From positions 1-35,123 of the forward strand of contig JAEOTS010000037.1 in the NCBI GenBank assembly GCA_016839745.1: a DNA stretch of 35,123 nt, given 5' to 3'. Position numbers and translations under genes: made by a program. The DNA is from Promethearchaeota archaeon (lineage in GTDB: Archaea; Asgardarchaeota; Lokiarchaeia; Sigyniarchaeales; SOKP01). Of this stretch, positions 19,903 through 34,785 are shown in pieces (the stretch's first letter is position 1; each line of letters opens with the position of its first letter). The notes under the pieces were generated by a model. That model made no database searches and was not told where the DNA came from. It saw nothing but the letters and a program-made list of their open reading frames with translations.

Positions 19903-20670
19903 TTACTCTTCCTCGACAGATTCCTTGCCTAACAAGCGCATAACGGAATCTGCAAGTTTATTTTGACTACGACTCATAATTCCTTTAATTTTCCCTTCTT
20001 TTCCGAGAACGCGGAGCATGATACCATCCCAAACTGAGGATGGATTCCCCTTTTCTTTCTTGAATTTATCTCTGTGAATCTCTACGCTAATATTATCGTA
20101 ATTTTTCGAAGCGTCCGAACACTTAAAACATAAAATACATTTATCTATGTCTACGGCTATGTCATTACCATCACGGGACATAGCATCTACAGAACACTCT
20201 TCAGTAAACGCGTCAATTACTTTAGTATCTTTTTCAGTGCAGTCGAATTTAATTGAACCATCTACTACCTTTCGTACTTTTTGACCATCTTCTAAAATGC
20301 GAACTTCTTCATCGAATTCAGCAAGAGAACCATTCTCTACTAATAATATCTTACTTTCTCCGTTGATTATTAATTCTAGCGTATATCCCGGACATATCCA
20401 GCTGCAACTGCCACACCATATGCATTTATCAACATCTACGACAATTTTTTTATCTGATTCAACTCTCATCTCTTCTGGAGTTCCTATAGCAGTTTTTTTT
20501 AATGGTTCATCGTAAATAGAAATTGTTACAGGACAAACTCTATGGCAAAAACCACACTCAACGCATTTACTTTCATCGTATTTTAATATACTCTCATGGG
20601 AAAGCATCTTATAGACATAATGAGTAATATTTTCGTCAATTTCGATCGCTTTCTTAGCTGGTAACGACAT
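19903..20670 (-). CDS. 4Fe-4S polyferredoxin-like protein (FwdF/MvhB-like)
   Basis: CVECGFCHRVCP, CIWCGSCSWICP and a degenerate CILCFKC; last gene of the hdrA cluster. Confidence 0.8.
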   Translation of the reverse strand: MSLPAKKAIEIDENITHYVYKMLSHESILKYDESKCVECGFCHRVCPVTISIYDEPLKKTAIGTPEEMRVESDKKIVVDVDKCIWCGSCSWICPGYTLELIINGESKILLVENGSLAEFDEEVRILEDGQKVRKVVDGSIKFDCTEKDTKVIDAFTEECSVDAMSRDGNDIAVDIDKCILCFKCSDASKNYDNISVEIHRDKFKKEKGNPSSVWDGIMLRVLGKEGKIKGIMSRSQNKLADSVMRLLGKESVEEE

Positions 20671-20760: not shown

Positions 20761-21900
20761 TTAAGTTTTTTCTAATTCCATTTGGCTAATCGCTTTACCA
20801 GACCTGAACGGTATATCATCTATGCTTTCACCGGCGCTATAATCAAACTTTTCCTTAAAGGAGTCGTTTAACGATTGGAAGTATAGTGATAGTGGAAGAT
20901 GTTGTGGACAGTTATTATCGCAATTTCCACATTCGACACAGCGGTCTGCGACATGGGCAATTCTTGTTAATTGATAGGATTCTTTATTGATGATCTTTTC
21001 TTTCCTCTTCTTCATTAGAATACAATCAACACAGTAACATACTGGACATCCTCTGATGCACATGTTGCACATAGTGCATGCTTGGAACCTCTCCAATTTT
21101 TCTTCCTGAGAAAGCTTGTCCCATTCTTCTAAATCCTTTGCTCTCTTTGCTATAGCTGCATCCTTAATGTTTTTAAGGACTTCGGATTGCTTAGTTTTCA
21201 TATCTTCAGGTAAAGGTTTTTTGTTGATCTTTGATTTTTCTACGAGATCTTCGCCTTTATCTGAATACACTTTAAGCACGATTTCGTCCGAATCAATAGG
21301 TAATACAAGATCACTAACGCTAATATCAGCTACAACAGGAACCTTCCTATTACAACGCGAACAGTTCTCTGCTATATCTAATCCAACCTCCTTGGTACTA
21401 CCATCTTCAAATTTAAGAATTAATCCTTTATCGCCAACTTTTTCTTTAACAACTTTAGTTAAATCAAGCCCTTCTACTTTCTTCAATTCGCGAGCGGCGT
21501 TTATTATCATCCCTCTATCCTCAAAGCCAACAACAAAGAGATTATCCATGTTAATCTGTCTAATCTTTGCTAACTCAATAATTCCACGCGTATCACAAGG
21601 ACGAGCGATAACTCCTACTTTTTCGTTTTTAGCCCCATCAACTGATTTGTGTAAGAATTTCGCAGCAGTATCCGTTCTCGCATACCCATATGCAATTAAA
21701 TTCGTTAAAGGAAAAGTAACAAAATCTTCTGGTTTTTCAACGAGTACTGGAGATACGGTAAACCTATCTACAGCCCCGGACTTCTTATCTACTTTTAACT
21801 TTGCTCCAATAATTTTGTCCACGATTTTTTCTTGCAAGAGCGTAGCTAATAGCTTAGGAAAATCCTCAATTTTAATTAAATATTCATCTAACGCATCCAT
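20761..21900 (-). CDS. FdhB/FrhB-family (F420 hydrogenase/dehydrogenase beta subunit-like) Fe-S flavoprotein, 379 aa
   Basis: KVGVIARPCD, ENCSRC, CTMCNMCIRGCPVCYC and RCVECGNCDNNCP. Start placed at ATG 21900 (MDALDEY) because the upstream extension is low-complexity and overlaps the SECIS. Confidence 0.85.
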   Translation of the reverse strand: MDALDEYLIKIEDFPKLLATLLQEKIVDKIIGAKLKVDKKSGAVDRFTVSPVLVEKPEDFVTFPLTNLIAYGYARTDTAAKFLHKSVDGAKNEKVGVIARPCDTRGIIELAKIRQINMDNLFVVGFEDRGMIINAARELKKVEGLDLTKVVKEKVGDKGLILKFEDGSTKEVGLDIAENCSRCNRKVPVVADISVSDLVLPIDSDEIVLKVYSDKGEDLVEKSKINKKPLPEDMKTKQSEVLKNIKDAAIAKRAKDLEEWDKLSQEEKLERFQACTMCNMCIRGCPVCYCVDCILMKKRKEKIINKESYQLTRIAHVADRCVECGNCDNNCPQHLPLSLYFQSLNDSFKEKFDYSAGESIDDIPFRSGKAISQMELEKT

Positions 21901-21988: not shown

Positions 21989-22063
21989 AATGTGTTATAT
22001 GGTGCTCCCATTTCTTCAACTGAGCTCTCATTTTTTTAACTCAGCTTCATTAGCTAACACATT
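21989..22063 (-). promoter_or_regulatory. Eukaryote-like SECIS element (selenocysteine insertion sequence) 3' of mvhD
   Basis: Minus-strand RNA: AAUGUGUUA-GCUA-AUGAA-GCUGAGUU-AAAAAAAUGAG-AGCUCAGU-UGAA-GAAAUGGGAGCACCAUA-UAACACAUU. It has a 9-bp helix I, an AUGA (22050-22047)/UGA (22018-22016) core, an 8-bp helix II and an A-run at the 5' side of the apical loop. Confidence 0.88.
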
Positions 22064-22497
22064 TATTTTTTAGAGGAGTCTTTATTTTTTTTATTTAACG
22101 GGCTCGGTCCAAGTTTCCGTATTTCTTCATCAAAAGCAGTTGCTACTTCCCGATATTTCGAACCTTCTGCTGAACTACAGTATTCCATCTTTAATCTTTT
22201 TGGGTCAAGTCCAATGGTTTTAACTACTTCTTTTAGATATGCAATTGATCTATGGGCAAAATAGTTGCCTTTTTCATAATCGCATTCTCCAGGATATCAT
22301 CCAACAATAATTATACCGTCAGCGCCTCTCCCAAACCCTCTCATAATTACATCCGCACCAACCCTTCCTGTGCATGGAACTAAAACGGTTCTTAAAGATG
22401 TGGGGTATTGAGCTCTAATAGTTCCCGCCATATCAGCTGCACCATAGCCTCATTTTAAACATAAAAAAGATAGAATTTTAATATCGTTGTTACTCAT
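22063..22497 (-). CDS. mvhD: MvhD/VhuD hydrogenase delta ([2Fe-2S]) subunit; selenoprotein with 2 Sec (U16, U67), 144 aa
   Basis: Manual translation: MSNNDIKILSFLCLKUGYGAADMAGTIRAQYPTSLRTVLVPCTGRV...GADGIIIVGUYPGECDYEKGN...RKLGPSPLNKKNKDSSKK*. TGA at 22450-22452 and 22297-22299 replace the Cys of the CxxC and GCxxGxC motifs. GAGGT RBS upstream; TAA stop. Confidence 0.93.
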
Positions 22498-22510: not shown

Positions 22511-24472
22511 TTAATCCTCAATTGGCAATAATTCGTCAATATAGCTTACATATTGAACATCTTTATAATGCGCTAATTCTATCGCTTTAGAAGGACAAAT
22601 TGCAGTGCATATTCCACAACCTCTGCAACTTATTACATCTACAACAATCGTTCCTTCATCATTAATAGAAATCGCTTTGTATGGACAAGCTTCAATACAT
22701 TTATAGCATTTTGCACATCTTTCGTCTATTGGTTGGGCACGTATTAATTCAATAACATACTCTTCTCGTCCCATTGGAATGCCTGCTGATGATGCTGCTC
22801 CCTTAGCTTGACTTACTGTTAGTTCAATTGATTTTTGACCTTGACATGAACCGGCTAAGTATACGCCTGGGACCTTCGTCTTGATTGGTTCTAAACGTGG
22901 ATGAACTTCTTTTAGGAAACCATCTGGTGATTTCTCAATATTCATTATAGAAGCAATTTCGTTTGTACCCCGCGATGGTAATGATGCCGATGACAAAACA
23001 ACCATATCAACTTCTTGTTTTACGATTGTATCAGTCCCAACTGGTTCAAATTCAACGGTAAGATTCTTTGTTAGCGGATCTTCTTCTATTTTTCCAATCA
23101 TCCCTTTAACAAAAAGAATTCCAGCATCCCTAGCTCTTCTATAATATTCTTCATACATCTTCCCAGCACATCTCATATCTATATAACATACCGTAATTTC
23201 TGAATCGGGATATTCTGAGATTATAAGTTTGGAATTCTTTACGGATAAATTACAACACACGACACTACAATATTCATTCTTTTTTAAATCTCTTGAACCT
23301 ACGCAGTTTATGAATAATATTTTCTTTGGACGTTTTCTATCTGAGGGGCGTACCAAATGACCGAACGTAGGGCCATTTGGAGCAAGAATCCTTTCTAATT
23401 GGATCTGTGTAATAACATTATCATATTTTCCGTACCCATAATCGTCTTCTTGATATAAGTCCCATCCTGTTGCTACAATTATTGTTCCCGCTTCAAGCTC
23501 TATAATTTCGTCTTGTTGACTAAAGTCAATTGCCTCCAAATCACAAGATTCGACACATGCAAAACATTCTACACACGATTCTCTTACAATATCATAAACT
23601 GCCGGAACTGCTTGAGCAAATGCGATATCGATACACTTACGAGCTGAAAGATTTTCATCGAAATAATTAGGAACATATATCGGGCATACTTCCGTACATG
23701 CTCCACAACCAGTACATTCGCTTTCAATGACAAATCGAGCTTTTCTTTTTACTTGGACTCTAAAGTTACCTATATATCCTTCGACTTTTTCTACTTCACT
23801 ATAGGTAAGCATTTCAATATTTGGATGACGATCAGCTTCAAGCATCTTTGGTCCGAGAATTCATATCGAACAATCGTCTGTGGGGAATGTTCGATCTAAT
23901 TGAGACATACGACCACCGATTGTTGTCTTCTTTTCAACTAAATACACTTTATATCCTGCATCTCCCAAATCAATTGCAGCACTTAAACCAGCAATTCCTC
24001 CGCCAATAACCAAACATGTAGGTTTTACATCAACTGTTTTTGTAGGTATCTCTTCTAAAAATTGCGATCTTGAAATCCCTGCTTTCACCAATTCTATTGC
24101 TTTAAGTGTAGCATCATCTCTTACTTCCATTGCTTGATGAACATAACTACAATGTTCTCTAATGTTTACAAATTCCAAATATCTCTGTGGCAATCCTGCT
24201 TCATTTAAAATAGCATGAAATACTGGTTCATGTGTTATTGGAGTTCAAGCAGCTAAGATAATTCTGTCAAAGCTTTTTTCCTCAATTTGTTCTTTAATAA
24301 ATTCAGCGCCTCCAGACGTACACAGATTTAAATACTCATAAGCGTAAACATCATCAAGTTTATCAATTTCTTCTACAATTTTAGGCACATCTAAAATACC
24401 CCCAATATTAACTCCTCATCTACATATAAATGCTCCGATTTTGTGTTTACTATTGGTCTGTTCTTCAGACAA
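22511..24472 (-). CDS. hdrA: Heterodisulfide reductase subunit A; selenoprotein with 3 Sec (U19, U76, U204), 653 aa
   Basis: One continuous frame from TTG 24472 (AGGTGG RBS) to TAA 22511, interrupted only by TGA at 24416-24418 (IGAFICRUGVNIGG), 24245-24247 (RIILAAUTP) and 23861-23863 (TFPTDDCSIUILGPKM). Contains VIGGGIAG FAD motif, CVGSRD...YCSVVCC and several CxxCxxCxxxC ferredoxin motifs. Joins track ORFs 23861..24193 and 22511..23845. Confidence 0.95.
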
Positions 24473-24759
24473 ATTTTCCACCTTTTATCTTTGTATCCTC
24501 CTAATTATAAATGTTTCAACTTATAACGATTTGAATTTATTGTATTTGATTCAATAAATATGATCATGCAAATGGTTCTTATTATTAAAATTCAATTATT
24601 ATTAGTTTTAAAACGAATATTTTTGATTTTAAGTCTTTCCTCATTGCTTTCAAAGTTGAAAAAATCGCACCAGATATAAATAGAATAAAGATTATAACTC
24701 ATGATTCAAACATAACACTTAAGTAAAAATTAAAAAGATCTTTTGATGGGTGAATATTC

Positions 24760-29252: not shown

Positions 29253-29810
29253 TTATTTACCGCCAAATTCCGATACATCGCCAAATAAACGCTTTACTGC
29301 GTCTATTCTGGTTTCTTCGCCAATCTGTTCGACATTTTTCAAACTGATGGCTTCTTTTGGACAAACAGCAATGCATTGAGGTTCGGTTTTACCTACTTCT
29401 GGATCAATATAATCCTCTTTCATATTATCACAGAGATCACATATAAGAGCTTTCTGAGAGTCAATGTTTAAATTGATAACCCCAAAATCGCAAGCTCTGA
29501 TACAATACGCGCATCCATTGCATTTTTCATCGTCTACAATTATAGAACCTGTTTCTTCATTTTTACTCAAAGCTTTTTCCGGACAGCTACGAATACATGG
29601 CGCATCCTCACATTTCTGGCACGCTAAAGCAATGTTGAAAACTGGTTCAATTCGCACTCTGTGGATTCGAGTATTAATAGGATTAAATTCACCATCGTGG
29701 ACAAAAGAGCAGACGGACTCGCATGTTTCGCAACCTGTACACAAATCAGGGTCAACTATTATAAACTGATGCATTTTTCCTCCGCGTTTCTTCATGGAAG
29801 ATCTTGACAT
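29253..29810 (-). CDS. 4Fe-4S dicluster electron-transfer subunit of AOR (DmsB/HydN-like)
   Basis: CTGCETCESVC, CQKCEDAPCIRSCP, CNGCAYCIRAC and CDLC...PQCIAVCP; 1 bp after the aor stop. Alternative start ATG 29774 with GGAGG RBS. Confidence 0.9.
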   Translation of the reverse strand: MSRSSMKKRGGKMHQFIIVDPDLCTGCETCESVCSFVHDGEFNPINTRIHRVRIEPVFNIALACQKCEDAPCIRSCPEKALSKNEETGSIIVDDEKCNGCAYCIRACDFGVINLNIDSQKALICDLCDNMKEDYIDPEVGKTEPQCIAVCPKEAISLKNVEQIGEETRIDAVKRLFGDVSEFGGK

Positions 29811-29811
29811 A

Positions 29812-31737
29812 TTACTTCTTACCTCCCGCTGGTTTCAATTTTCCAATAACGAAGTCTAAGCCTAAGCTCTTAAGAGTTTCATTCGTAGGAATTCCCGTCT
29901 CAGTGTCCCAACCTCGGGCTTCATAGTATCCACTTAATAACTTCTGATATCCATCTTCCTTTAAAACGACACCTTTAGCAGGACCTTTAGTGTGGGCATC
30001 TTTAAAGAACTTTTCTGGAGGATGATCGTCTGCTCGAGTCCAACCTTCTCGAATATTGAAACACTTGGAAAGGTTAAGAATCGCATCCCCTCGAACCAAC
30101 AATGATTCTTCCGTATGAGGTATACCCGTCACTAACTCGTAAACTTTGGCCATCTCTGCGTCGTTCTCGTAGATTCCGCGCGTAAATTTACATATGACAT
30201 AGGAATCAATGATCGCATACACATCTTCAGTCGCCTTGATTTTCTTTCCACGTTCGAGAGGTTTATCGTAACCAAATCTATCAAAAGTACCTTTTGCATC
30301 TAGACCGTACGCACCATTTCGTAGGTGACATGCCCCTCGAATTGAAACGCTTTCACCAACAGCGAATGAAGTCATACCATGGAGGTCAAATGCTGGCATT
30401 TCGAGCCCTTTAATATGCATTCCATAATAACTTGCATTTTTTCTGCCCATTTCTTCTAGTCTTATTCCAGCTTGTTTACATCCGTCTTTAAAAATCTTTC
30501 CAGCAAAACCTTTTCCTAAGATCATTTCTTCTGTAAATCGAGATAGATTTGTGGTAGAACCAAAAGGTAGTTCATATCCAAGATCTTTCTTCGTTATGAG
30601 TCCAACATCGTATAACTCACAAGCCATTGAGGCGGTTACACCACCGGAAATCGCGTCAATTCCTAAGTCATCGCATAACGATACGCATTTAAAGACAGTT
30701 GGCCAATCGCTACAGCCTGTGTTCGTTCCAAAGGAATAACACATTTCCACATCTATAGAAGCAACTAAATTAGGATATTCTGGGTGAGTTTTTGGTACTC
30801 TCGCTAGATGATCGCAAGCGATTGAACATTGTGAGCAAGCAACTTTTTTAACAACCCAATCTTCGTTTAATTGATCGCCATTAAAGGCTCCTTTGTCAAT
30901 CTCGTCCCACGTACCTTCGCGGTAGTTCATGGTAGGCATCATTCCCAGTTTATTGTAACTAGTCAAACCTGCTGGCGTGCCTAAATCACGATATTTGGCA
31001 GTTGCTGGGCCGTTAGCTACTTTAATTAATTTCTTAGCTTTTTTATAAAATTCCACTGGATAGGCAACTTTTAGTCCTTTTGTGCCCCGAAATGCGATAG
31101 CCTTCAGATTTTTACTTCCCATAACTGCTCCCATTCCAGTACGACCCGCTTGTCTGTTTCTATCGTTAGTAATACAACCCAATCTACTCATTTGTTCTCC
31201 CGCTGGTCCAATGGACATCACAGCTAATCTTTGATCTTGAAATTCTTCTCTAAGTAATTCCTCTGTCTCAAAATTCCCTTTACCCCAAAGAGTTTTTTCA
31301 CACGGTTCTATGTAGTAATCATCGTCGTCTACAACCATGTAAACAGGTTCAGATGCTTTTCCTTTGATAACAATTGCGTTTATTCCAGCTCGTCGCGCTT
31401 GTGCTCCAACTGAACCAGAAGAAATAGCCATACCAAACATATCTGTTAATGGAGACTTAGCGAATACTCCATATTTCGAACTTGTTGGTAAAATTGTAGT
31501 AGGAAAAGGTCCAATAGCCCAAACAAACACGTTATCAGGACCTAAAGGATCGATACCTGGTTTTAATTCGTCCCAAAGAATTTTAGCTCCAAATCCATAC
31601 CCACCGATCCAATCCCGACAGAATTCTCCAGATAAAGTAGATTTTGAAATCTTACCGCTGGTTAAATCAACATCGAGTCTCACTTGAGAGTATCCTTTGA
31701 GATCGTCAGGTATAGTTACATCTTTAGCTTTACTCAT
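29812..31737 (-). CDS. aor: Aldehyde:ferredoxin oxidoreductase family (tungstopterin) enzyme
   Basis: IGGYGFG, AKSPLT, SIGPAGE, AGRTGMGAVMGSKNLKAI, CSQCSIAC, DDLGIDAIS, RGACH and YYEARGWD. Confidence 0.93.
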   Translation of the reverse strand: MSKAKDVTIPDDLKGYSQVRLDVDLTSGKISKSTLSGEFCRDWIGGYGFGAKILWDELKPGIDPLGPDNVFVWAIGPFPTTILPTSSKYGVFAKSPLTDMFGMAISSGSVGAQARRAGINAIVIKGKASEPVYMVVDDDDYYIEPCEKTLWGKGNFETEELLREEFQDQRLAVMSIGPAGEQMSRLGCITNDRNRQAGRTGMGAVMGSKNLKAIAFRGTKGLKVAYPVEFYKKAKKLIKVANGPATAKYRDLGTPAGLTSYNKLGMMPTMNYREGTWDEIDKGAFNGDQLNEDWVVKKVACSQCSIACDHLARVPKTHPEYPNLVASIDVEMCYSFGTNTGCSDWPTVFKCVSLCDDLGIDAISGGVTASMACELYDVGLITKKDLGYELPFGSTTNLSRFTEEMILGKGFAGKIFKDGCKQAGIRLEEMGRKNASYYGMHIKGLEMPAFDLHGMTSFAVGESVSIRGACHLRNGAYGLDAKGTFDRFGYDKPLERGKKIKATEDVYAIIDSYVICKFTRGIYENDAEMAKVYELVTGIPHTEESLLVRGDAILNLSKCFNIREGWTRADDHPPEKFFKDAHTKGPAKGVVLKEDGYQKLLSGYYEARGWDTETGIPTNETLKSLGLDFVIGKLKPAGGKK

Positions 31738-32022: not shown

Positions 32023-34785
32023 ATGACCGAAACTACGGAAAAAAGTAAAACTGAGAAAAACGACAAAATATTATCCAGTGACATCATTAAAAATGTCATT
32101 GCACACGCGAACTATTGCTATAATTGTAATCGCTGCGTTAATGTATGCCCCGTCTCTTATTTAGATTTGTTTTATCCGAGGAATCTGATTACTGATTTAA
32201 CCTTCTTAACTCCAGAGGAAGCACTACAAAATAATAACATTTGGGACTGTCTAACGTGTGGACTCTGCACAGAATACTGCCCAATGACTAAAGATAAAAC
32301 TGGGGTCAACTTTACAGAGATTATTAAGGAACTTAGAACCTTGACTTCGGAATACGAACCATTACAAGAGACTTTACGTAGTTGTAATCACGATAGAGTG
32401 TATTCTAGTCTACCAAAATTAATGGCAGACGATAAGATAAAAATCACCAATAAACTAGGATTCTTAGAAGGAAATAGTTTAAAAATAAAAACTCAAGGAG
32501 AAATTGCTTACTTTATGGGTTGTGTTCCATTTTTAACTGGAACTGCTCCTTGTGTTGTTGGTTGTCCCGCAGGAGTAGATGTTCAAGGATATGTATCTTT
32601 AATATCAGAAGGAAAGTTTCAAGAATCTATCGATTTAATAAGAGAAATGAATCCCTTACCTTATTTATGTGGTAGAATCTGTACTGCGCAATGTGCACTA
32701 AATTGCAATAGGCAATATCACGATGATCCCGTTGCAATTCGAGAATTAAAACGATTCGTATCGGATTATGAAGCTTCTCATCCAAACAAAAGCAAAATAA
32801 AACCGGTTAAACAAACGAAAGAAAAAGTCGCTATCATTGGTGCAGGACCAGGAGGGTTATCTGCTGCTTATTATCTAGCAAGAATGGGATATAAACCAAC
32901 AATTTTCGAAAAAGGTGATAAAACTGGTGGGGTCGTAAGATACGGAGTTCCCCAATATAGGCTCTCTGACGAAGCGTTAGATCACGATGTCGACTTTATC
33001 AAAAGCATGGGAGTAAAAATAATATTAAACAAAGAGTTTGGTGAGAATTTCACACTTGAAGATCTTAAAAAAGAAGGATTTGAAGCTGTTTTTATTGCGG
33101 TAGGGCTTTATGTGCCAAAAACTTTGAGACTAGAAGGTGAAGATTTACCTAATGTTCATATTGCCATAGATTTTCTCTTAGATCGAAAGTATAATTGTGC
33201 AGAAAACCCGGAAGAATTCAAGGGTAAAACTTTTGGAATTATCGGTGGAGGAGCAGTTGCTGTAGATGTTGGTGAAACCGCTGTTAGATTGGGTGCTACA
33301 AAAGTCGATTTTGTAGACATACTAACTGAGGAAGCACTTAAAAATGTGCTTAAAGACCTACATGAAGCTGAGAGAGAAGTTATGGAGTACAATTTTACCA
33401 CCTCGACCAAGAATATTACTCAGGAACCTAACGGAAAGTTAGCGCTAAATTGCTATAAGATTGAGTGGGGAGAACCTGATCCTGAAACTGGAAGAAGACC
33501 CCTAAATAAAGTGGATGGCTCTGATTATAAGATTGTTGTGGATTATGTGGTTACTGCTATTGGGCAGGGACTTGATATGGTTCCTATTAATGCCGCAACT
33601 GATAACAAATTAAAAATTGACAGGGGAAAAATATTAGTTGACGATTTAACTTATGAAACTACGATTCCAGGAGTATTTGCCGGGGGAGATATAATATTTG
33701 ACTCGCTAATGTGTGCTGTTGATGCTATTGGAGATGGGAGAGAAGCCGCATTTTCGATAGATCGCTATTTACGTGGAATTGATTTAAAAGAAGGAAGGAT
33801 TAGAACAAAAGAACTTAAGAGATCTACTATTCCTAAAAAAAATATCCAAGTAAACGCTTGTCAAGAAATGAACTTTATGCCGGGTGAAGAACGTTTAGTT
33901 TGTTTTGAAGAGATGGAATTGGGTTACACGGAAGAACAAGCGAAAAAGGAAGCAAATAGGTGTTTAAATTGTAATTGTTGCAGTAATACTGATCAGATCC
34001 CCGAGGATTATACTGCCGCTCTTGATTCTACTGGAATTATGGTTTGTAATTATGGAAATCAAGATAATATGCGTTCGTACAACGCTATTGATTACCTCAC
34101 CATTCCTAAAAACGTCATCGGGATTTTAAATCAAAATGAAATTGTACCCGTTGTTTTGGCAAACGAGAAGTGCTGTGGACACGATATTATTTGGCAAGGT
34201 GATACAGAATCTTTTGAGAAGTTAGCGAGATATAACGTAAAGTTGTTTAAAGACGCTGGAGTAAAAACGATCGTTTTTAGTTGCCCTGAAGGGTATTACA
34301 CTTGGAACAATGAATATAGAAAAATATTTAAAAATAGCGATGATTTCGATTTTGAACTTTATCACATATCGGAATACATTATGAAAGAGAAACTATTAGA
34401 AGATATATCTTTTCCAAATTTAGGAGAAGTTAAAGTAACTTATCACGATCCTTGTAGACTTGGTCGCATGAGCGATGTTTATGACGCTCCTCGAGAAGTT
34501 TTAAAACAAATCCCTGGTATTAAACTACTTGAAATGAAAAATAATAAGGTTGATGCTGACTGTTGTGGCGTATCTGCCTATATCTCATGCAATCAAAATT
34601 CAAAGCTCTTACAAGAATCGAGGATAAAACAAGCAATAGAAACTGGAGCACAATATCTAATTACAACTTGTCCAAAATGTTTGACGCATTTAAATTGCTA
34701 TCTAAACGAAAATAAAGAGTTTAAAAACAAAATTCAAGTAATTGACTTATTGACATTTATTGGTAAATTGCTCTTTATGCAGTAG
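32023..34785 (+). CDS. HdrC/HdrD-like CCG-domain oxidoreductase with an inserted GltD/NfnB-like FAD/NAD(P)-binding module, 920 aa
   Basis: CYNCNRCVNVCP and CLTCGLCTEYCP; YFMGC; then APCVVGCPAG, CGRICTAQC, IIGAGPGGL, IIGGGAVA, GVFAGGD and RCLNC; then EKCCG, SCPEG, TYHDPCRLGR, DCCG and TTCPKC. Confidence 0.88.
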   Translation: MTETTEKSKTEKNDKILSSDIIKNVIAHANYCYNCNRCVNVCPVSYLDLFYPRNLITDLTFLTPEEALQNNNIWDCLTCGLCTEYCPMTKDKTGVNFTEIIKELRTLTSEYEPLQETLRSCNHDRVYSSLPKLMADDKIKITNKLGFLEGNSLKIKTQGEIAYFMGCVPFLTGTAPCVVGCPAGVDVQGYVSLISEGKFQESIDLIREMNPLPYLCGRICTAQCALNCNRQYHDDPVAIRELKRFVSDYEASHPNKSKIKPVKQTKEKVAIIGAGPGGLSAAYYLARMGYKPTIFEKGDKTGGVVRYGVPQYRLSDEALDHDVDFIKSMGVKIILNKEFGENFTLEDLKKEGFEAVFIAVGLYVPKTLRLEGEDLPNVHIAIDFLLDRKYNCAENPEEFKGKTFGIIGGGAVAVDVGETAVRLGATKVDFVDILTEEALKNVLKDLHEAEREVMEYNFTTSTKNITQEPNGKLALNCYKIEWGEPDPETGRRPLNKVDGSDYKIVVDYVVTAIGQGLDMVPINAATDNKLKIDRGKILVDDLTYETTIPGVFAGGDIIFDSLMCAVDAIGDGREAAFSIDRYLRGIDLKEGRIRTKELKRSTIPKKNIQVNACQEMNFMPGEERLVCFEEMELGYTEEQAKKEANRCLNCNCCSNTDQIPEDYTAALDSTGIMVCNYGNQDNMRSYNAIDYLTIPKNVIGILNQNEIVPVVLANEKCCGHDIIWQGDTESFEKLARYNVKLFKDAGVKTIVFSCPEGYYTWNNEYRKIFKNSDDFDFELYHISEYIMKEKLLEDISFPNLGEVKVTYHDPCRLGRMSDVYDAPREVLKQIPGIKLLEMKNNKVDADCCGVSAYISCNQNSKLLQESRIKQAIETGAQYLITTCPKCLTHLNCYLNENKEFKNKIQVIDLLTFIGKLLFMQ

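Follow-up and report, generated by a model that had tools for sequence, protein, structure and literature searches.

The hdrA-vhuD locus and its SECIS element

The window analyzed here, a stretch of 35,123 nt from a Lokiarchaeial metagenome assembly (GenBank GCA_016839745.1), carries on one strand an hdrA gene with three in-frame TGA codons, a vhuD/mvhD gene with two more, a selenocysteine insertion element (lokiSECIS), and genes for an FdhB-like and a ferredoxin-like protein (Table 1). The hdrA strand, not given in the first-pass annotation, is minus, and a plus-strand reading of positions 22511-24472 was rejected because its translation is junk. Between 24481 and 22511 the gene forms a single frame free of TAA or TAG interruptions and of frameshifts, TGA occurring at codons 22, 79 and 207 and nowhere else; counted from the TTG at 24472, this is the 654-codon frame with TGAs at codons 19, 76 and 204 that the first-pass annotation had described as otherwise uninterrupted, a description that minus-strand translation bears out. 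Both starts are possible, the GTG or the TTG at 24472 (653 aa), the latter with AGGTGG just upstream. Translation with table 11 splits the gene into pieces of 110 and 444 aa, the fragmentation that had been foreseen for standard pipelines. The TGAs were also compared with source data, using contigs: a contig of the probable source run, which is not independent data, is identical to window positions 24134-24600 (0 differences) and leaves the first two TGAs unchanged, with the third lying outside the source contigs listed. Contigs from RNA runs of related strains span the hdrA region and by their nature carry no information on strand, level or co-transcription. A promoter and terminator scan gave signal at chance level.

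Table 1. Coordinates of genes, selenocysteine (Sec) codons and the SECIS element in the window
Feature	Coordinates	Strand	Remarks
hdrA	22511..24481	-	656 aa from GTG 24481; three Sec; stop TAA
Sec22 (codon 19 from TTG)	TGA 24416..24418	-	matches 5ODC Cys13, an invariant N-terminal-domain Cys; probably ligates HA3
Sec79 (codon 76 from TTG)	TGA 24245..24247	-	matches 5ODC Cys71, an invariant N-terminal-domain Cys; probably ligates HA3
Sec207 (codon 204 from TTG)	TGA 23861..23863	-	canonical Cys/Sec197; C-x-x-U pair
vhuD/mvhD	22063..22497	-	144 aa from ATG 22497; Pfam FlpD E 8e-42; PDB MvhD E 3e-35
lokiSECIS core	22016..22050	-	AUGA, stem of 9 bp, A-rich loop of 11 nt closing with AG, then GA
FdhB-like (F420-dependent formate dehydrogenase beta type)	20761..21900	-	7BKB_E E 2e-36
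ferredoxin-like protein	19903..20670	-	255 aa; next gene, same strand as FdhB-like

The vhuD reading frame probably starts at the tabulated ATG, 13 nt past the hdrA stop and with GAGGT upstream, rather than at TTG 22539 as in Huang 2024; its Sec codons 16 (22452-22450) and 67 (22299-22297) both fall at conserved cysteines of MvhD. The AUGA of the SECIS begins 12 nt past the vhuD stop, and the lower helix spans about 21990-22062, the element with this helix folding at z = -4.4. It is the sole element of its kind found by a relaxed scan of the operon, and it is separated from the first hdrA UGA by 2366 nt and a TAA stop. Across 21 related copies, pairing holds in 94.7% of cells, and six of the nine pairs have changed on both sides; this covariation exceeds that of all shuffled and slid controls, with no probability attached since the copies are kin. 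The strict pattern is absent from the flanks examined of seven loci (L028, L046 and L052-L056), and an Rfam search of the operon returned chance matches only, none to a SECIS. Genome-wide, the strict pattern matches 11 times, against 2-8 in shuffles, so that the pattern alone is weak evidence, and position and covariation carry the case. Elsewhere in the genome, lokiSECIS elements accompany two members of known families, a VhuU gene with a C-x-U motif (contig C169, element at 178, plus strand) and a Prx-like gene (C157, element at 40729, minus strand).

Nearly every orthologous locus has the FdhB-like gene downstream of the SECIS. Its frame opens at 22011, where an upstream ATG overlaps the lower helix of the SECIS, and conservation sets in mainly from Met38, making ATG 21900 the probable start. 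Neither hdrBC nor hydrogenase genes lie alongside hdrA-vhuD; hdrB homologues are present elsewhere in the genome, and a search at E 1e-10 for a [NiFe] large subunit found none in this 89%-complete genome, which does not imply its absence. Gene order suggests that FdhB, VhuD and HdrA would form an electron-input module. Further along the window lie genes for an aldehyde:ferredoxin oxidoreductase and an Fe-S subunit (29253-31737, minus strand) and a divergent gene for a 920-aa protein that joins ferredoxin, GltD-like flavoprotein and CCG (HdrD/GlpC-like) domains in one chain (32023-34785, plus strand).

The TGA codons align with invariant cysteines of HdrA

HdrA and MvhD are a textbook pair. Over its full length the hdrA product matches solved HdrA structures at 44-47% identity, with E 2e-205 to 9SFI and E 2e-197 to 5ODC, and its predicted model superposes on 5ODC, 8RVU and 7BKB at a TM-score of about 0.8. 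The match to the NCBIfam HdrA2 family (E 1e-224) falls below the cut-off; the NCBIfam HdrA models are longer and lineage-specific, the HdrA2 model including an MvhD part. The FAD motif, the cluster cysteines of all four domains and the conserved Glu and Lys at the flavin are present, the latter as E363 and K415 (Glu356 and Lys409 of 5ODC, counted on the alignment), which we take to have a role in bifurcation. From sequence and fold, HdrA is predicted to be of the flavin-based electron-bifurcating type.

Counted in the same way, C20, U22, C54, U79 and U207 correspond to Cys11, Cys13, Cys46, Cys71 and Cys197 of 5ODC. As the first-pass annotation had held, every TGA sits at a conserved cysteine: all three sites align with Cys in solved HdrA structures and form invariant Cys/Sec columns across 26 homologues, and the chance that three random stops would all land in the 26 invariant Cys columns is about 6e-5. 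The third site aligns with an X (Sec) in 9SFI, in agreement with the further claim of a Sec at the DCSxU position of Methanococcal HdrA, documented as Sec197 in M. maripaludis (PMC13518236). The remaining cluster cysteines of HdrA are all invariant, with C393, C405, C409 and C410 and two ferredoxin pairs in place. Within the N-terminal domain the invariant cysteines number exactly four (20, 22, 54 and 79), Cys111 being variable.

Sec sites vary among related lineages

HdrA homologues occur in 60 of 61 related genomes, and most of those listed carry two to four TGAs. The same three TGAs recur in nine other close copies, namely the paralogue on contig C79 of this genome and the genes of eight other genomes, and in close relatives HdrA identity is 93-96%, downstream of all TGAs as well. 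In a tree of 37 rows, for which the Sec sites had been masked, copies of the 22/79/207 type form one clade of 10 rows (support 100/98), and a pattern of 22/54/207 defines a sister clade of five rows (support 100/99); the remaining orthologues have Sec at 22 and 207 and TGT or TGC at 79. The first site (22) is a TGA in nearly all Sec-type copies, positions 20 and 204 are Sec in none of the 37 rows, and all hdrA stop codons seen in this comparison are TAA or TAG, in agreement with the prediction of Mariotti 2016 (PMC4989117). Sec79 looks like a gain within this genus, repeated loss being the less parsimonious course. Sec thus falls on three of the four invariant N-terminal cysteines (22, 54 and 79) in different lineages, Sec79 and Sec54 being found in separate, well-supported sister clades and together again in a distant paralogue.

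Several further copies are found in the genome itself. The C79 paralogue (L002) shares the three Sec sites at 83% identity, the C83 paralogue has four Sec (22, 54, 79 and 207), the C20 copy has a Sec inside its ferredoxin motif, and the partial C137 copy has two; overall, Sec-type hdrA-vhuD pairs or pieces lie on C79, C83, C20, C137, C43 and C64. All-Cys copies of hdrA/mvhD are found on C141, C21 and C25, and an all-Cys hdrA is listed on C52 too.

The genome encodes a full selenocysteine machinery

The genome (a metagenome assembly of 3.5 Mb, 89% complete) yielded every component for which the first-pass annotation had proposed a search, tRNA-Sec, SelD, PSTK, SepSecS and EFSec, so that a lack of Sec machinery, named there as grounds for refutation, does not apply. 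SepSecS on contig C150 scores over its family cut-off; an EFSec-like GTPase on C150 (E 1e-67) and a PSTK on C72 (E 1e-50) are best matches that remain below theirs. Two selD genes stand in tandem (C158:16249-18543), each with an in-frame TGA at a G-U-x-C-K motif. The tRNA-Sec gene (C150:5449-5596) lies just upstream of SepSecS, on the same 6.8-kb contig as EFSec, and was located by BLAST with intron-less copies of congeners; two introns interrupt it, one in the anticodon loop (about 28 nt) and one in the T loop (about 30 nt), the latter kind reported by Mariotti 2016 (PMC4989117). Once spliced, it is called tRNA-SeC(tca) by ARAGORN, with a UCA anticodon and the shape of a tRNA-Sec; in the unspliced genome ARAGORN and Rfam RF01852 miss it, as does an anticodon-stem scan, owing to the intron. 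In the genus, 16 of 41 genomes pass the Rfam tRNA-Sec cut-off with intron-less 89-nt copies. A further candidate, on C60, was rejected as an intron-bearing tRNA-Leu with a TAA anticodon. Apparent non-canonical introns in the D arm were also seen in tRNA genes at C60:32990-33108, C153:3539-3639, C20:11054-11157 and C4:30294-30396, and may explain the ARAGORN total of only 11 tRNAs in the genome.

The SECIS scan additionally turned up a 37-codon zinc-ribbon gene (CxxC-x13-CxxC; C46:57148-57258, equal to L066:1620-1730, minus strand) that ends F-K-TGA-TAA and has a lokiSECIS 43 nt after the TGA (core starting at C46:57104). Members of this gene family are present in 63 of the class's 161 genomes, every one of which belongs to a single taxonomic family; among 50 loci examined, 45 have a TGA followed by TAA or TAG, a SECIS lying 30-52 nt downstream in 38 of them, and the five loci that end in TGT and a stop have none. 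It is a candidate C-terminal-Sec selenoprotein family and is absent from the supplements of Huang 2024 (PMC11227280). Just downstream of the 37-codon gene, a second small zinc-ribbon ORF (L066:1236-1391, minus strand) likewise has a terminal TGA and then a stop.

Published precedents

The gene, its three-Sec pattern and the mechanism are already published, down to the individual protein. The survey of more than 400 Asgard genomes by Huang, Xiao and Zhang 2024 (PMC11227280) includes, in file 77 of Supplementary data 2, an entry 'Lokiarchaeia_GCA_016839745_U_2' with X at all three sites; it has the same GTG start and the same sequence from the N-terminus to beyond residue 480, with no differences found in the parts compared. 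The downstream VhuD is listed as well, and the C79 paralogue corresponds to entry _U_4. Three proteins of this genome, HdrA, VhuD and PrxL, have matching entries under the label Lokiarchaeia_GCA_016839745, and the host is a Lokiarchaeon. In the HdrA file, the motif A-A-X-T-P has at least 24 occurrences and C-R-X-G has 175; the main-text passages on HdrA do not discuss the number or positions of Sec. The question that the first-pass annotation had left open, whether this exact three-Sec pattern was already described, is thus answered in the affirmative by Huang 2024 together with Mariotti 2016, and three-Sec HdrA is ordinary for Lokiarchaeia.

The first-pass statement that multi-Sec selenoproteins have been reported in Lokiarchaeota was likewise correct: Mariotti 2016 (PMC4989117) describes HdrA carrying up to four Sec distributed over five positions, and multi-Sec HdrA and VhuD sharing one SECIS. 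The tandem described there and the present one agree in having vhuD right behind hdrA and then one SECIS, a UAA end of hdrA and several Sec at conserved cysteines, the canonical site near residue 200 included, and the SECIS agrees with the published lokiSECIS point for point. Started at the TTG, the vhuD frame here would overlap hdrA by 29 nt, compared with 28 nt for HdrA.3-VhuD.3 in the same source. More distant relatives, namely the HdrA of Methanococcales and Methanopyrus with a single Sec197, as in the M. maripaludis Hdr-Vhu-Fwd complex (PDB 9SFI/9T1S; PMC13518236), and the Cys-only HdrA of 5ODC, 7BKB and 8RVU, share the four-domain architecture and have Sec or Cys at the same C-x-x-U/C site. 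Compared with these relatives, the HdrA studied here has two more Sec, both in the N-terminal domain, and a eukaryote-like SECIS shared with vhuD, and its locus has an FdhB-like gene alongside instead of hdrBC or hydrogenase genes.

Proposed decoding of five UGA codons

These data support, with a probability of about 95%, a model where the locus encodes a Lokiarchaeial selenoprotein pair whose five UGAs are all read as Sec with the help of one SECIS, giving a predicted full-length HdrA. A single mRNA, bicistronic or longer, would carry hdrA with three UGAs and vhuD with two, and the eukaryote-like SECIS just after vhuD would recruit EFSec and Sec-tRNA for all five. The intact triple-Sec HdrA proposed in the first-pass annotation is upheld as a prediction by the Cys-aligned TGAs, their conservation, the SECIS and the full Sec machinery.

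One alternative accepts a true selenoprotein gene and supposes that its full-length product is rare or conditional, expression being gated by selenium and all-Cys paralogues substituting when it is scarce. UGAs far from a SECIS often terminate, or take Cys under selenium scarcity, and the first UGA lies 2366 nt away across a TAA stop; the all-Cys hdrA/mvhD copies on C141, C21 and C25 would supply the substitutes, comparable to the Sec/Cys isoform pairs that PMC11097638 reports for M. maripaludis. We regard this as possible and rather doubtful, as 93-96% identity downstream of all TGAs in close relatives requires the full-length protein to be produced under some conditions, and in any event it would refine the model of five Sec-decoded UGAs without replacing it. 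Nonsense mutations in a pseudogene, or errors of a metagenome assembly, are a negligible prospect even with other hdrA copies, all-Cys ones included, that could make one dispensable: three stops that are all TGA, all at invariant cysteines and accompanied by no other lesion would have to recur in eight other genomes and a paralogue, a conservation that refutes the idea, and the SECIS and Sec machinery are present. Genome-wide reassignment of UGA to Trp, Gly or Cys, which five in-frame TGAs in hdrA and vhuD might bring to mind, is just as thoroughly contradicted, since TGA ends 160 of 1469 long frames and is thus an ordinary stop in a code that is not reassigned, the sites align only to Cys, and the UCA-anticodon tRNA has the shape of a tRNA-Sec within a complete Sec machinery.

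A putative selenium-ligated HA3 cluster

In solved complexes VhuD/MvhD passes electrons to FAD, from which the high-potential electron exits via HA4 towards HdrBC; its low-potential counterpart is passed to HA3, which the mobile N-terminal domain carries as a shuttle cluster (PMC13580544, PMC13518236). HdrA would probably be fed through VhuD by the adjacent FdhB-like subunit as electron donor; Sec207 is the C-x-x-U residue of the canonical site, placed between FAD and mobile HA3, and Sec22 and Sec79, in place of two of the four invariant N-terminal cysteines, would probably be HA3 ligands. For the C-x-x-C/U pair (204/207 here), Cys197 has been described as a ligand to the N-terminal cluster of the partner (PMC9012536), and for the pair the roles described are those of a selenenylsulfide relay (PMC13518236) or of a binding site for an unknown ligand (PMC13580544).

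HdrA's N-terminal domain holds a [4Fe-4S] cluster (PMC9012536, PMC13518236). Having exactly four invariant cysteines (20, 22, 54 and 79), the domain offers these as the natural HA3 ligands, an assignment drawn from invariance and literature. Wagner 2017 is said to describe HA3 as held by five cysteines, Cys197 of the partner included. On this basis Sec22 and Sec79 probably ligate HA3, which would give the cluster two selenium ligands here and three in the C83 paralogue, and the recurrent Cys-to-Sec sites (22, 54 and 79, plus the 197 site) would probably trace the HA3 ligand sphere and relay, HA3 being the cluster that takes the low-potential electron of bifurcation. We therefore lean, with some reserve, towards a Lokiarchaeial HdrA with a multiply selenium-ligated [4Fe-4S] cluster HA3, in which selenium would tune the shuttle cluster of bifurcation. 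We found no literature linking Asgard HdrA Sec to cluster ligation, in a search that covers subscription journals poorly.

A different role was proposed in Mariotti 2016, where Sec22 and Sec79 would be free redox-active residues; that paper (PMC4989117) states that the Sec sites, except for one, are at cysteines that do not coordinate clusters, a statement that ligation of HA3 would contradict and against which later structures speak. We consider the free-residue proposal unlikely, in that it predates the 2017 structure, the domain has a [4Fe-4S] cluster and only four invariant cysteines, and three of those four become Sec in different lineages. By eye, HdrA's N-terminal domain also parallels the two VhuD Sec, with a C-x(1-2)-U-G motif followed later by a U at a strand end, without profile or fold support: comparison with VhuD/MvhD gives a BLAST E of 0.2 and an hhalign probability under 1%, and with 8RVU_F a Foldseek E of 7e-3 at TM 0.37, on a pLDDT-70 model.

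Two broader points, both published in 2016, are illustrated by the locus, namely the fragmentation of real multi-Sec Asgard genes by ORF callers, and the plausible service of a lone eukaryote-like SECIS to five UGAs that stretch across two cistrons and 2.4 kb. If HA3 is indeed selenium-ligated, this would reinterpret a known gene family rather than define a new system. Structural papers of 2026 describe what the HdrA Cys/Sec197 pair does as unresolved (PMC13580544, PMC13518236), and naturally occurring forms that carry Sec at two or three putative HA3 ligand positions mark residues at which selenium tuning of bifurcation may be tested.
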